Below the pieces are notes generated by a model. The model made no database searches, was not told the origin of the DNA, and worked only from the letters and a program-made list of their open reading frames with translations. A stretch of 64,000 nucleotides of DNA from Akkermansia muciniphila (GTDB lineage: Bacteria > Verrucomicrobiota > Verrucomicrobiia > Verrucomicrobiales > Akkermansiaceae): NCBI GenBank assembly GCA_945883695.1, contig CAMCYK010000002.1, positions 5,676 to 69,675 on the forward strand. The letters are read 5' to 3'. Positions 51,908 to 58,419 of the stretch are shown here, piece after piece; the first letter of the stretch is position 1, and each line of letters starts with the position of its first letter. A program made the translations under genes and the position numbers.

Positions 51908-54302
51908 TTCTCCCCGCCTTCTCCAGCAGACTGAACAGCGACTCCACCGTTGCCGTCACCTTCTCCAGATCCTCCTCCTCGGAAAACACCGCGAACGTCA
52001 CCGACTTGCGCAGCTCCCGCAGCTCGGCATCGCTCTCCTTCCAGCCGGGATGCTTCGAGTCGGTGAAGCCGTGGACGATGAGCTTCAGCCAGCCCGGCAC
52101 CCGGTCTTCCATCTTCGCCTTGAACAGGGCCTTCAGCAGGCCGATGTCCTTCACGATCGCGTTGATCTCCGCGCTGTCGAAGGCCAGCGCCTTTTCCAAC
52201 TTGTCGAAGATGCCGACGAAATCGAGGACGAAGCCGTGTGGCTTCACTCGTGCGGGCATAGCAGCGCGAAGCCCCACCATCTCCTGCGCTTCGTTCTCGT
52301 AGGGCCGGTTCACCCGGGCGATGGCTTGCAGCAGCGTGTGATCGCGCATCGGCTTGTCCAGATACATCGCGTAGAGCACCGGCGCGTCGAAGCCGGTAAG
52401 CAGCTTTTCCGTCACGATCAGGATTTTCGGCATCTGGTCCAGCTTGCCGAAGCTCTTGCGGATCTGCCGTTCCTTCTTCGGGTCGAGGTGGAATTCCTTC
52501 AGCAGCTTCGAGTCGTTGTTGCTGCCGGTGTAAACGACCTCCGAATACTCCGGCGGCAGGAATTGATCGAGCGCCTTCTTGTAGTGCGCGCAGGCCTCGC
52601 GATCCACGCCGACGAGGAATGCCTTGTAGCCCAGCGGCTCCACGTTCTCCCGGTAGTGCTTCGCCACGAACTTCGCCACCTGCTGGATCCGCTGCTTCCC
52701 CTTCAGGAAGTTTTTGAGGTTCACCGCCCGCTCCAGGATCTTGTTGAGCTCCTCGATGTCCGCCACGCCCTCGGCTTCCGCCAGCGAGAGGAATTCCTGA
52801 TCCAGCGTCTCGTGCGGCACCAGCATCTCGTTCGGCGCGAGCTGGTAGTAGAGCGGCAGCGTGGTCCCGTCGCCGATGCTGTCCGCGATGGAATACTTGT
52901 GCAGGTAGCCCTCATCGTCATCCACGCCGAAGGTCTTGAAGGTCCCCTTGCCGAAGGCCGTCTTGTCCACCGGGGTGCCGGTGAAGCCGATGAAGGTCGC
53001 GTTCGGCAGACCGGCCATCAGGAAGTTCCCGAGATCGCCGCCGGTCGTCCGGTGCGCCTCGTCGATCAGCACATAGATGTTCTTCCGCAGGTTCAGGTCC
53101 GCCGGCATGTCGCGGAACTTGTGGATCATCGTCACGATGATGCCCCGGTAATCGTTCCTCAGCAGCTCGTTCAGCCGCCGGATGCTGCCGGCGTGTTCCA
53201 GATTCCCCAGCCCCAGCGCCGCCAGGTTCTTGAGCATCTGGTCTTCCAGCTCGTTGCGGTCGATCATCAGCAGGACCGTCGGCTTGTCCGCTGCCGCGGC
53301 GCGGAAAAGCATCTGCGCCGCCACGATCATCGTGAAAGTCTTGCCGCTGCCCTGCGTGTTCCACACCAGCCCGCGCGTCCGCAGCGGATCGAGCGCCCGG
53401 TCCACCACGCATTCCACGGCTTCCGTCTGGTGCTGGCGCAGGATGTATTTGTTCAGCTCCTCGTCCTTCTCCGCGAAGAGGATGTAGTCCTTCAGGAAGG
53501 CCAGCACCCGCGGGATGGTGCAGAAGCTCTTCACCTTCCACTCCAGATTCCCCAGCAAAGAAGCTTCAACCACGGAATTCACGGAACACACGGAATCAGA
53601 AATCCCACCTCCAAATCCCTTCCGTGTATTCCGGGTGTTCCGTGGTTCGACTTCTTCATTTTTCCACGCAAAAATATTCCGCCGCACCGTGTTCCAGGTC
53701 ACCCCGTAGGAAAACCCGATCGCATCCGTGGCGGTGAAAAGCTGGAGCGGCACGAAAACCTCCGGCGTCTCCTCGTGGTAGCGCCGGATCTGGTCGATCC
53801 CCAGCGCGATCCCTTCATCCTTCGTCGCGTTCTTGCACTCGGTCACCAGCACCGGGATGCCGTTGATGAGAAACACCACATCCTGCCGAGTCCCGTAGTG
53901 GCCGTTGTGATAGGCCCACTCCTCGGTCACTTCGTAAATGTTCCGCGCCGGATGCTCGTAATCGATCAGGATCAAGTCCCGCTCGCGCTTCTCCTCGTGG
54001 TCGAAGAACTTCCCCCGGTTCCGCAGGTGCTCCACGAATTCCCGGTTGCCGTAAATGTCCGAGTGCAAATGCCGGAACTTCCCGGGCAAGGCCCCCTCCG
54101 CCTCCGCGTAGCGCGGGTTGAACTTCAGCACTTGGGTGTGCAGCAGGTCTTCAAAAAATAAGGAGGGCGGACACTCTTGTCCGCCTTTCGTCTTCCCACG
54201 CCGCAATTCCGCTTCCTCCCTCGAAACCAAGCTCCACCCGATCTCCTGCGCATACGCGAGAATCCTGGCTTGGACGGTTTTGTGTTCGGTGGGCTTGCTC
54301 AT
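51897..54302 (-). CDS. hsdR: Type I restriction endonuclease subunit R
   Basis: Nuclease motif D-VVFLINGIP...ECK; helicase motifs QGSGKT, DEAHR, FTGTP, QAIARVNR. Contains in-frame inserts; C-terminus appears short. Confidence 0.92.
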   Translation of the reverse strand: MSKPTEHKTVQARILAYAQEIGWSLVSREEAELRRGKTKGGQECPPSLFFEDLLHTQVLKFNPRYAEAEGALPGKFRHLHSDIYGNREFVEHLRNRGKFFDHEEKRERDLILIDYEHPARNIYEVTEEWAYHNGHYGTRQDVVFLINGIPVLVTECKNATKDEGIALGIDQIRRYHEETPEVFVPLQLFTATDAIGFSYGVTWNTVRRNIFAWKNEEVEPRNTRNTRKGFGGGISDSVCSVNSVVEASLLGNLEWKVKSFCTIPRVLAFLKDYILFAEKDEELNKYILRQHQTEAVECVVDRALDPLRTRGLVWNTQGSGKTFTMIVAAQMLFRAAAADKPTVLLMIDRNELEDQMLKNLAALGLGNLEHAGSIRRLNELLRNDYRGIIVTMIHKFRDMPADLNLRKNIYVLIDEAHRTTGGDLGNFLMAGLPNATFIGFTGTPVDKTAFGKGTFKTFGVDDDEGYLHKYSIADSIGDGTTLPLYYQLAPNEMLVPHETLDQEFLSLAEAEGVADIEELNKILERAVNLKNFLKGKQRIQQVAKFVAKHYRENVEPLGYKAFLVGVDREACAHYKKALDQFLPPEYSEVVYTGSNNDSKLLKEFHLDPKKERQIRKSFGKLDQMPKILIVTEKLLTGFDAPVLYAMYLDKPMRDHTLLQAIARVNRPYENEAQEMVGLRAAMPARVKPHGFVLDFVGIFDKLEKALAFDSAEINAIVKDIGLLKALFKAKMEDRVPGWLKLIVHGFTDSKHPGWKESDAELRELRKSVTFAVFSEEEDLEKVTATVESLFSLLEKAGRSAK
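52244..52273 (-). repeat. 30-nt in-frame insertion in hsdR (GLRAAMPARV)
   Basis: ATG GTG [GGG CTT CGC GCT GCT ATG CCC GCA CGA GTG] AAG; aligns with the 33-nt element family with a 3-nt shorter spacer. Confidence 0.65.
53553..53648. repeat. 96-nt in-frame palindromic insertion in hsdR
   Basis: 28-nt arms 53568-53595 and 53620-53647 (24/28 complementary), built of CACGGAA units at 9-nt period; low-complexity 32-aa translation. Confidence 0.8.
54166..54185. repeat. REP-like palindrome inside hsdR 5' region
   Basis: GGCGGACA-CTCT-TGTCCGCC, perfect 8-bp arms; translated as GGQECPP. Confidence 0.7.
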
Positions 54303-54308
54303 TAGAAA

Positions 54309-54428
54309 ATTCTGGCTTGCATAAAGGCTCGTCCGGACGGATGGTCGCCTCGTTCTCCGCCAGTGGCAGTAGAACCAACAAAGGCCCCCGCAGAGCCAGC
54401 CTGGTCAAATCTGCGGTATTTTTTTGCC
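54309..54428. ncRNA. Candidate structured RNA between the 144-aa gene and hsdR
   Basis: Stems CCGCAGA/TCTGCGG (54388-94/54410-16), GTTCT/AGAAC enclosing CTGCC/GGCGG, palindrome CGTCCGGACG, T7 tract at 54419-25. Strand undetermined. Confidence 0.4.
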
Positions 54429-54429
54429 C

Positions 54430-54864
54430 TCATGGCGTCCATTTCGGTGAGGTTTTGAGCTTGGCCAGCGTACTCGGTGTGTCAGCCACATAGGCGGTGA
54501 TGAATCTGGCCGACGTCGGACTCGATATCCCGATTACCACCACGTAATTGCCACACACCAGTGTCACCCGGCGGTTCTTGTCATATTTCCGTGTGTCCCG
54601 ATCCCAGCCCTGAAATCGCTGCACCGCCGTGTCCTGCAAGGCCACGGCGATCCATTCCATCCGCTCCGCACGTATATCTGAAAACTTGTCTTTCACCAGG
54701 TCGCGGCGCGTGCTCTCAAAAAAACAATGATCAAAGTCAGTCTTCCGGAATCGCACCGTCATCCCGTCGTGAGTCATGACCGCTCCACGGCAATACAGGT
54801 TCTCAAAATGAAACCGGTAGGCGGCTTCATCGGCGAGACTCAGCAATGGCGGATACACCGCCAT
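54430..54864 (-). CDS. Hypothetical protein, possible RelE/PBECR-like RNase fold
   Basis: 144 aa, starts directly after the DUF3800 stop; FDHCFFES, C-terminal YVVVIGI...FITAY strand pattern resembles BECR-fold toxins (inference). Confidence 0.65.
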   Translation of the reverse strand: MAVYPPLLSLADEAAYRFHFENLYCRGAVMTHDGMTVRFRKTDFDHCFFESTRRDLVKDKFSDIRAERMEWIAVALQDTAVQRFQGWDRDTRKYDKNRRVTLVCGNYVVVIGISSPTSARFITAYVADTPSTLAKLKTSPKWTP

Positions 54865-58137: not shown

Positions 58138-58170
58138 GCCTGTCCTGCCGTAGCCCTTGGGCAAAGGAGG
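58138..58170 (-). repeat. 33-nt in-frame element (PPLPKGYGRTG)
   Basis: Absent from the long hsdR (HLRN|RGK); CCTCCTTTGCCCAAGGGCTACGGCAGGACAGGC. Confidence 0.85.
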
Positions 58171-58227
58171 ATTCCGCAGGTGCTCCACGAATTCCCGGTT
58201 GCCGTAAATGTCAGCCGAAAAATGCCG

Positions 58228-58260
58228 GCCCGCCCCTCCGAAGCCGAATGGCGAAGGGGG
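58228..58260 (-). repeat. 33-nt in-frame element (PPSPFGFGGAG)
   Basis: Absent from the long hsdR (GKF|RH); CCCCCTTCGCCATTCGGCTTCGGAGGGGCGGGC. Confidence 0.85.
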
Positions 58261-58386
58261 GAACTTCCCGGGCAAGCCCCCCTCCGCCTCCGCGCAGCGC
58301 GGGTTGAACTCCCGCACCTTGGCACCCAGCAAATCCTCGAAAAAAAACGTCCGCCCCTTCGCCCGATCCTTGATCGGCATCTCCGA

Positions 58387-58419
58387 ACTTGTGTCGGCGT
58401 AGCTCTTTGGCGAAGACGC
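58387..58419 (-). repeat. 33-nt in-frame element (ASSPKSYADTS)
   Basis: Same site as, and nearly identical to, 55794-55826. Confidence 0.65.

Follow-up and report, generated by a model that had tools for sequence, protein, structure and literature searches.

We analyzed a 64,000-nucleotide stretch of an Akkermansia muciniphila draft assembly (GenBank GCA_945883695.1, contig CAMCYK010000002.1, positions 5,676 to 69,675; hereafter the window), in which hsdR, a gene of a type I restriction-modification (R-M) operon, is interrupted by a series of very short, frame-preserving DNA segments. The draft genome comprises 6.3 Mb at 65.6% G+C in 391 contigs. The operon lies on the minus strand, with defense cassettes sitting between hsdS and hsdR. 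In operon order, hsdS (62077-63285) comes first and is followed by a PHP/ATPase gene and a 271-amino-acid (aa) gene, a truncated hsdR 5' end (relic 1, 58048-58533; a 161-aa open reading frame [ORF] whose HsdR homology ends after EEKRER), an AAA_15/AAA_21 ATPase gene and a 248-aa gene, a second truncated hsdR 5' end (relic 2, 55560-55940; a 126-aa ORF with HsdR homology over approximately its first 70 codons), a DUF3800 gene and a 144-aa gene, and finally a long hsdR (51897-54302; 801 aa with the Pfam domains HSDR_N, SWI2_SNF2, ResIII, and T1R_D3).

Five segments of 33 nt and one of 30 nt, all on the minus strand, are distributed over these three hsdR sequences. Relic 1 contains three of them, at site A (58387-58419, encoding ASSPKSYADTS), site B (58229-58261, PPSPFGFGGAG), and site C (58139-58171, PPLPKGYGRTG), while relic 2 contains a copy at site A (55794-55826, ASSPKSYAVTS) and one at site E (55693-55725, (N)PSPPIGYAAAR, as delimited by DNA alignment), the latter approximately 15 nt short of where the hsdR homology of relic 2 ends. 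Since the site A copies of both relics occupy the same position and are identical at 32 of 33 bases, they represent one insertion inherited by both, so that the five 33-nt copies correspond to four independent sites. An earlier note, made from the letters of the window alone, had proposed that five such segments at four hsdR positions align without gaps over a shared set of columns, namely, CT at 5-6, GCC at 9-11, GCT at 17-19, CG at 21-22, C29, and G32. The alignment on the coding strand reproduced these columns for four segments as given, whereas for the fifth they appear only from 55692/55693, 2 to 3 nt off the start at 55695 proposed there; the four positions are sites A, B, C, and E. The four distinct copies share 17 to 23 of 33 bases with each other and 23 to 25 of 33 with the consensus of copies from other genomes, compared with about 9 of 33 expected by chance.

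Alignments against the long hsdR of the window, approximately 75 loci, and approximately 110 full-length HsdR-family proteins showed that the segments are exact 33-nt insertions. A scan of species-representative genomes had yielded 195 loci encoding relatives of relic 1, of which 80 were kept, nearly all spanning 115 codons; where homologues have 115 aa, relic 1 has 148, that is, three times eleven residues extra. The site A insert is absent from approximately 75 loci and approximately 100 HsdR-family proteins. Site B is empty in the long hsdR and most homologues, and site C in the long hsdR, in L151 (the orthologous locus of a close relative), and in all homologues seen. The earlier note had called two of the segments demonstrably absent from the long hsdR, and this gene indeed provides the empty state of sites B, C, and E, its site A region being occupied by a repetitive extragenic palindromic (REP) hairpin segment. 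The borders seen in the DNA alignments place the site A insert after GGGTTTGA(T) and before CCGGAG, the site B insert after AAGTT and before CCGGCAT, the site C insert after CGGAA and before CCGGGGG, and the site E insert after GCCAA and before GGTG. Together with a fifth position, site D, at which the homologue P0006 carries a 30-nt insert encoding HLCDGYGRQV, the insertion points read GA(T)^CCGG (A), GTT^CCGG (B), GAA^CCGG (C), ATC^GGC (D), and CAA^GGTG (E). CCGG thus adjoins the insert at three of the five hsdR sites (A, B, and C). The DNA alignments revealed no target-site duplication at any of the five, and no inverted repeats were found at the hsdR sites.

The sixth segment (52245-52274, GLRAAMPARV) lies in the long hsdR just past helicase motif VI and has GTG at either end. 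It is a real insertion, present in the HsdR of the closest relative (P0004) and in no other aligned homologue. The earlier note had taken it for a copy with a shortened spacer, and it is matched by a flexible-spacer pattern of the repeat family described below; however, its internal layout is unlike that of the other five and it is read in a different frame, so that it is probably, although not certainly, a diverged member of the same family.

The hsdR segments belong to a family of dispersed repeats with the conserved core CTTCGCC-N3/5-GCTWCG...RCARG. A unit has a variable head of 5 to 6 nt, the conserved loop CTTCGCC-N3-5-GCTWCG, a tail able to base-pair with that head, and RCARG at its 3' end, and it occurs in builds of 30 and 33 nt. 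The 33-nt unit comprises a 5-nt head and a 28-nt core, as determined from the flanks of copies, and its length is directly visible in a tandem pair one heptamer apart. A strict pattern of the 28-nt core matched in 18 of 401 genomes of the phylum, whereas the reversed pattern gave at most one match per genome, in 5 of the 401. With two mismatches allowed, six genomes held 26 to 48 copies of the 33-nt class, against 0 or 1 match of the reversed control; overall, the reversed-sequence controls gave 0 or 1 match and the family 5 to 48. The source genome itself contains 31 dispersed copies of the 30-nt build (head plus CTTCGCC-N3-GCTWCGGAGGRCAGG; at most 3 mismatches, flexible spacer; reversed control, 0). 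Every source-genome copy outside hsdR is of this build, and neither a weight matrix whose spacer was fixed at 5 nt nor the flexible-spacer pattern detected the 33-nt class there outside hsdR. Of 141 genomes of the same class, 22 contain the 30-nt build and 6 the 33-nt build, one of the latter with nine copies; a single genome of the class (G441) was noted to hold both. Variants of 31 and 32 nt exist among intergenic copies. Hence, the central proposal of the earlier note, a dispersed family of very small repeats that adds 10 to 11 residues in frame, was borne out: empty alleles exist for every site, and further copies occur both here and in related genomes, one of them in frame in a DNA ligase gene. 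Of the two outcomes that the note had named as contrary to its proposal, a lack of other copies and the occurrence of these peptides as native loops of homologous HsdR proteins, neither was found.

The resident 30-nt class has a 6-bp stem formed by the head and the bases past GCTWCG. In the alignment of copies, 92% of the cells of this stem are paired, compared with 86% in shuffled sequences, none of 500 shuffles was as good, and slid controls reached 35 to 58%; three of the pairs show compensatory changes. Across genomes, the 14-nt loop is the conserved part, whereas the stem varies. Read on the other strand, the loop opens with GTAG (GAAG in some copies), which occupies loop positions 1 to 4 within the hairpin. 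Copies are uniform inside a genome and different between genomes. An Rfam search of six loci with canonical copies returned no family at the element. Several other identities were considered and discarded, namely, clustered regularly interspaced short palindromic repeats (arrays with spacers are lacking), intein remnants (insufficient length, with the motifs absent), tRNA or tmRNA fragments (no Rfam match), and chance words arising from codon bias (ruled out by the controls).

Most copies are intergenic or lie within short, doubtful ORFs. In the source genome, a canonical GTAG REP, GTAGGGTCGGACGCCCTCGGCCGACC, adjoins 12 to 14 of the 31 resident copies on the opposite strand in a fixed doublet; this REP has 50 copies in the source genome and 0 in the control. 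A composite repeat of approximately 130 nt contains, in this order, a GCCACGGG... segment, the 30-nt hairpin, and the abutting GTAG REP GTAGGGTCGGACGCCCTCGGCCGACC (examples at C20:38862, C111:14813, C225:3256, C240:2543, and C286:1592, where C numbers denote source-genome contigs). One direct tandem pair of the element was seen, and no inverted self-pairs. Intergenic copies are often bracketed by direct repeats of 7 to 9 nt, which form arrays on both sides rather than a single duplication. The short tandem repeats around the hairpin units vary by genome (CATCGAA, CAGAGGCA, and GGATGGAT/TGGTGGAT), and hairpins embedded in such arrays were observed at L010, L012, L096, L097, L107, L108, and L113 as well as in the source genome (C109:14880-14935, C126, and C347).

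A minority of copies reside in genes. The ATP-dependent DNA ligase gene of the source genome carries an in-frame 30-nt copy, and the adenylation domain of its product (PF01068) is split into two Pfam stretches; this insert (C5:~1150-1300) combines the hairpin with octamer repeats of the TGGTGGAT type in frame and encodes the peptide ...STISHLSSEALAKEDPPSTIHHLPSTIS.... A large membrane protein gene of the same genome also holds an intragenic copy. In another genome, an insert in a histidine kinase reads PPSPGSFGEAS, its frame being the one used in hsdR, while coiled-coil genes of other genomes read the element reversed, as DLSRRSALAKA. Every intragenic copy seen measures 30 or 33 nt, whereas intergenic copies include the 31- and 32-nt variants, which is the pattern that a filter for reading frame would produce.

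Within hsdR, the inserts at sites A, B, C, and E, and also at site D, share one orientation and one frame (S/P-P-x-x-Y/F-G; PSPxGYGG). If five of the six combinations of strand and frame are assumed to be open, the probability of this agreement by chance is approximately (1/5)^4, or 0.002. We read this bias as selection for a harmless peptide rich in proline, serine, and glycine, and a contribution may also come from insertion next to CCGG in the NNC-CGG register. Regarding the structural context, an AlphaFold2 model of P0004 derived from an alignment of 50 sequences was of low quality (mean predicted local distance difference test score, 46; predicted template modeling score, 0.28) and was not used, and the alignment to the solved structure of EcoR124I HsdR begins no earlier than residue 117, which is downstream of sites A to E.

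About 10% of the HsdR homologues have related inserts at the same sites (L015, L044, L049, P0005, P0006, P0007, P0012, P0013, and P0040). The site A insert occurs in seven of the approximately 110 full-length homologues and in L044, with the peptides PPSPKGYGGTS, APSLASYGGTS, PPSPTGYGATG, PPVPEGSGGTS, PPSPSGLRRSG, and V/APSPE(N/G)YGGTSG; the site B insert occurs in three. No family copies were found outside hsdR in the three genomes scanned for them, those of L015, L044, and L049, so that mobile hsdR alleles seem to carry inserts as fossils into genomes that are otherwise devoid of the family. With the 33-nt class not being the resident one and the carrier genomes holding no further copies, the inserts are best read as old scars on horizontally moving hsdR alleles and not as a sign of activity in the source genome. 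On the tree of whole proteins, seven changes are needed for the seven carriers of a site A insert, and their grouping in one clade is rejected (approximately unbiased test, p-AU of 0.0001). An unusual G-to-C change in the tail is common to the relic, L015, L044, and L049 copies, which suggests that these site A copies share descent. A search for an exact site A copy in metagenome contigs gave 0 matches.

The closest relative offers a direct comparison, since its locus L151 is orthologous to the window locus, having the same tatD, hicAB, and autotransporter flank at 96.5% identity. Its hsdR product (P0004, 1016 aa) contains the 30-nt insert and a site B insert that differs at one base from that of relic 1, but is without those at sites A and C; diverged forms of the site B copy are found in L015 and P0005. 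The DNA of relic 1 is 91 to 94% identical to the L151 hsdR 5' end. The long hsdR is 93 to 99% identical to the L151 gene from approximately nt 300 on and 64 to 76% identical in the first 200 nt, which are thus of foreign origin. Compared with L151/P0004, it has a 636-nt in-frame deletion in the C-terminal helical region, and judging from this sequence it may be non-functional. The cassettes between hsdS and hsdR are wholly different at the two loci, showing a rapid cassette turnover; the hsdR 5' region is thus swapped along with the cassettes, which explains the relics as well as the seeming density of inserts. Where the window has positions 54430-62053, L151 (5253-10000) has cassettes encoding a DUF6602 protein, a DncV-like nucleotidyltransferase, and ApeA/HEPN, and no hsdR relics. 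Part of the density that the earlier note called unusual for this gene is due to the presence of two duplicated 5' relics and to the permissive nature of an N-terminal stretch, which in homologues takes up other repeat families and even a whole gene for a REP-associated tyrosine transposase (RAYT).

Several of these other occupants deserve mention in their own right. At the site A region of the long hsdR lies a perfect 8-bp REP hairpin, GGCGGACA-AGAG-TGTCCGCC (54166-54185, peptide KTKGGQECPPS), which has a twin with the same AAAAAATAAGGAG flank on another contig (C170:892) and resembles an intrinsic terminator on either strand. An 11-mer of this hairpin, AAGAGTGTCCG, is found again precisely where relic 1 breaks off (58088-58098). 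The long hsdR further contains a 96-nt element with CACGGAA arms (53553-53648) at the WK|EEV junction; its arms are short-repeat arrays of the same kind as those around the hairpin units. This junction, where the nuclease part of HsdR meets the helicase part, forms a second permissive site, at which different homologues (P0005, P0008, P0011, P0014, P0051, P0074, P0082, and P0097) contain different small repeat families, such as SAKSADK-type elements and GGxxCPP hairpin pairs besides the CACGGAA-arm element of the window. In L021 (6001-8890) and in P0009, P0036, P0107, and P0111, a whole RAYT-like gene (PF01797, with an HVH motif) lies inside hsdR at WK|EEV, flanked by REP hairpins of the GGxxCPP type, with the frame open throughout (ORFs of 962 to 1243 aa). 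Moreover, the hsdR frames of L013, L014, L020, and L065 diverge or shift just past ...DLILIDY, near the end of relic 1, so that this vicinity may be a recurrent break or insertion point of the hsdR family.

Taken together, it is probable that the hsdR segments are copies, in frame, of very short REP-like hairpins whose family extends across the phylum, and that a mobile hsdR carries them as scars. The insertions themselves, the family with its copy numbers, its stem, and the reading frame are established by the data, whereas we infer how the elements would move, and where and when each insertion would have taken place. The mostly intergenic position of copies in their home genomes, their uniformity within a genome, and their differences between genomes suggest that an enzyme specific to the host amplifies them in trans. 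Our best guess for this enzyme would be a single-strand HUH/Y1 (RAYT-like) transposase, a suggestion drawn from the missing target duplication and from the CCGG next to three of the five hsdR sites; the hairpin would fit a REP/RAYT type of element as well. A copy that lands in a gene would persist only if it had a multiple of three bases, contained no stop codon, and encoded a harmless peptide. Such a survival filter would account for the intragenic lengths of 30 and 33 nt, the single orientation in hsdR, and the single PSPxGYGG frame. The inserts lie in the first 115 HsdR codons, a stretch that also tolerates other repeat families in homologues, and as the hsdR family moves between phyla and recombines at its 5' end, its alleles would bring scars into genomes without the 33-nt class. 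In the window, the inserts persist chiefly within the two truncated 5' ends of hsdR, which cassette exchange between hsdS and hsdR would have left behind.

A number of observations weigh against this interpretation. Genes with the Y1 domain (PF01797) are present in every genome tested, but none was found within 3 kb of any 30-mer in the source genome, a draft assembly in which absence is not proven and in which GIY-YIG genes were not searched for; the mobility proposed by the earlier note is putative. Likewise, among the 30 Y1 loci of six element-rich genomes, which are also drafts, only one has a 33-mer, approximately 1.3 kb off. The adjacency to CCGG is not general among the copies of other genomes, and only one stem pair covaries in a mixed set of 33-nt copies. 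The 33-nt copies of the window fold no better than shuffled sequence (z of 0 to +0.9); the hsdR copies in the window are decayed. A search of the element-rich genomes for this hsdR, aimed at a donor, found it in none of them. A comparison of sister genomes for an orthologous empty and filled pair around a coding copy in a home genome gave only short repeat matches. Finally, when the N-terminal 260 residues are considered alone, a single site A clade is not rejected (p-AU of 0.105), and together with the shared G-to-C change this makes one or a few old insertions spread by 5' recombination just as likely as an insertion hot spot.

Alternatively, the inserts could have arisen in the lineage of the source genome itself, from a resident family that then had 33-nt units and later shifted to 30 nt while hsdR kept the old build. 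In the site B and C copies, head and tail correspond to those of the two resident subtypes (CCCTC...GGAGGG and ATCCTC...GGAGGAC) plus three bases, the site B and 30-nt inserts are common to the resident hsdR of the close relative at the orthologous locus, and both builds coexist in G441. However, all 31 dispersed copies are of 30 nt and none of 33 nt, relic 1 is only 91 to 94% identical to the 5' end of the relative, compared with a flank identity of 96.5%, the mosaic nature of the 5' ends shows in the 64 to 76% identity of the first 200 nt of the long hsdR, and site A inserts also occur in HsdR proteins of unrelated genomes. We therefore regard an origin in the own lineage as possible, albeit with a distinct lean against it. 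A different explanation would dispense with transposition altogether and have the segments copied in by repair or recombination, through template switching, patch repair off a dispersed hairpin, or gene conversion of hsdR. It would fit the lack of a mobilizer and of target duplications, the recombinogenic nature of the hsdR 5' region (mosaic ends, relics left behind, and cassettes unlike those of the relative), and the N-terminal tree, which does not reject a single site A origin. Recombination can spread an existing insert, but it does not explain how exact, whole units first came to lie at five different sites, and uniform, genome-specific populations of tens of copies have the look of REP families and REP doublets forming hairpins (REPINs) that are mobilized in trans (PMC3733652), which renders repair or recombination rather unlikely as the source of the inserts.

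Much less credit is due to the idea that the hairpins are selected at this locus, either as crossover or cutting points for cassette exchange or as RNA elements that tune hsdR expression. It is tempting to connect the site E element with the end of the relic 2 homology some 15 nt away, and the end of relic 1 at a REP-like half-site, AAGAGTGTCCG, with the same word in the REP hairpin of the long hsdR; also, a loop that is conserved across classes on a stem that covaries resembles a recognized motif. Yet sites A, B, and C lie well within the relics and away from the break points, the same inserts are found in intact, full-length hsdR genes elsewhere, and the stems of the window copies are degenerate, so that we consider a selected role very improbable. 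Least plausible of all, and hardly credible in view of the controls, is that no repeat family exists and that these are native, lineage-specific HsdR loops made alike by GC-rich codon bias. Words resembling CTTCGCC and GCTTCGCC are indeed frequent in high-GC coding sequence, and a first, loose pattern gave 36 matches against about 8 expected, mostly in ordinary coding sequence. Set against this are the absence of the inserts, as exact 33-nt gaps, from about 90% of homologues, their match of 23 to 25 of 33 bases to the consensus of other genomes, the 0 or 1 match of the reversed-pattern controls, and the presence of the family between genes and in unrelated genes.

If the hsdR segments are indeed scars of REP-like hairpins, they have several uses. 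The inserts would be datable scars in a defense gene that moves between phyla and, together with the duplicated hsdR 5' ends, could serve as markers for reconstructing cassette swaps at type I R-M loci. The family also explains odd segments of 10 to 11 residues (PSPxGYGG, LSRRSALAKA, and the like) in many predicted Verrucomicrobiota proteins, as well as spurious small ORFs. One might go further and speculate that hairpins throughout the phylum are recognized by a dedicated enzyme that inserts them in one orientation, without duplication, and with a preference for CCGG, and that they possibly provide break points for cassette exchange. We consider this fuller scenario unlikely, but if it were true, there would be "codon-neutral" mobile hairpins that give proteins PSPxGYGG loops and mark the horizontal travel of defense genes.

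Among the known systems, GTAG- and CGTC-tagged REPs with intragenic copies have been reported in several species, the GTAG ones mostly in Opitutus terrae, a member of the Verrucomicrobia (PMC3733652), and Di Nocera et al. (2013, PMC3733652) argued for linkers or loops as the location of intragenic REPs. The peptides that this study gives for the O. terrae REPs (GTGVPPV, VGPALAAG, and HGRHARAT) belong to other families, and none of four peptide words of the present family (GYGG, YGGT, SPKG, and LRRD) is among the O. terrae REP-encoded peptides in the supplement of that study. Like GTAG REPs and REPINs (PMC3733652; Bertels and Rainey 2011, PMC3116915), our elements fall in the size range of 20 to 40 bp, have tens of copies per genome and genome-specific variants, in the resident 30-nt class form a stem and loop, are mostly intergenic with a minority in frame in genes, and carry GTAG on one strand. 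Unlike GTAG REPs, they have this GTAG inside the hairpin loop and not as an unpaired tag outside the stem, combine a conserved loop with a stem that varies across genomes, and showed no RAYT gene flanked by the repeats in the (draft) genomes tested.

Rickettsia palindromic elements (RPEs), to which the earlier note had likened the segments, are said by Ogata et al. in 2000 to lie in frame within protein genes. The likeness holds for behavior, both being in-frame selfish repeats that add a peptide, keep the frame, and have empty alleles in relatives. It does not hold for structure, considering that the window copies fold like shuffled sequence: RPE-1 is approximately 100 to 150 bp long, clearly palindromic, found in Alphaproteobacteria, and unrelated in sequence. 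Short RPEs, compared here through their description in PMC3733652, carry a CGTC tag, whereas the 30- to 33-nt family is without CGTC and its hsdR copies are barely palindromic. Bacterial MITEs (transposable elements of the miniature inverted-repeat type) in genes, for example in Coxiella burnetii (PMC5896051; review, PMC10969869), can alter proteins by in-frame insertion and resemble our elements in being short, non-autonomous, and able to change a protein in frame. They differ in having terminal inverted repeats and target-site duplications, neither of which was seen at the hsdR sites, and in usually exceeding 100 bp.

Transposition of the insertion sequence type IS200/IS605 (IS608 and ISDra2) depends on hairpins, occurs beside a fixed tetranucleotide, and leaves no target duplication. 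In this respect, the duplication-free insertions with CCGG beside three of the five hsdR sites would be alike (PMC6006769); they are unlike it in that no transposase and no left- or right-end structure accompany them and CCGG is not general in the family. Overall, insertion of REPs and RPEs in frame is already documented, Verrucomicrobia included, and no concept is overturned by our observations. The 30/33-nt family itself seems to be undescribed and absent from the catalogue of PMC3733652, and it adds an uncatalogued, very small repeat family to the selfish DNA known to reside inside protein genes.

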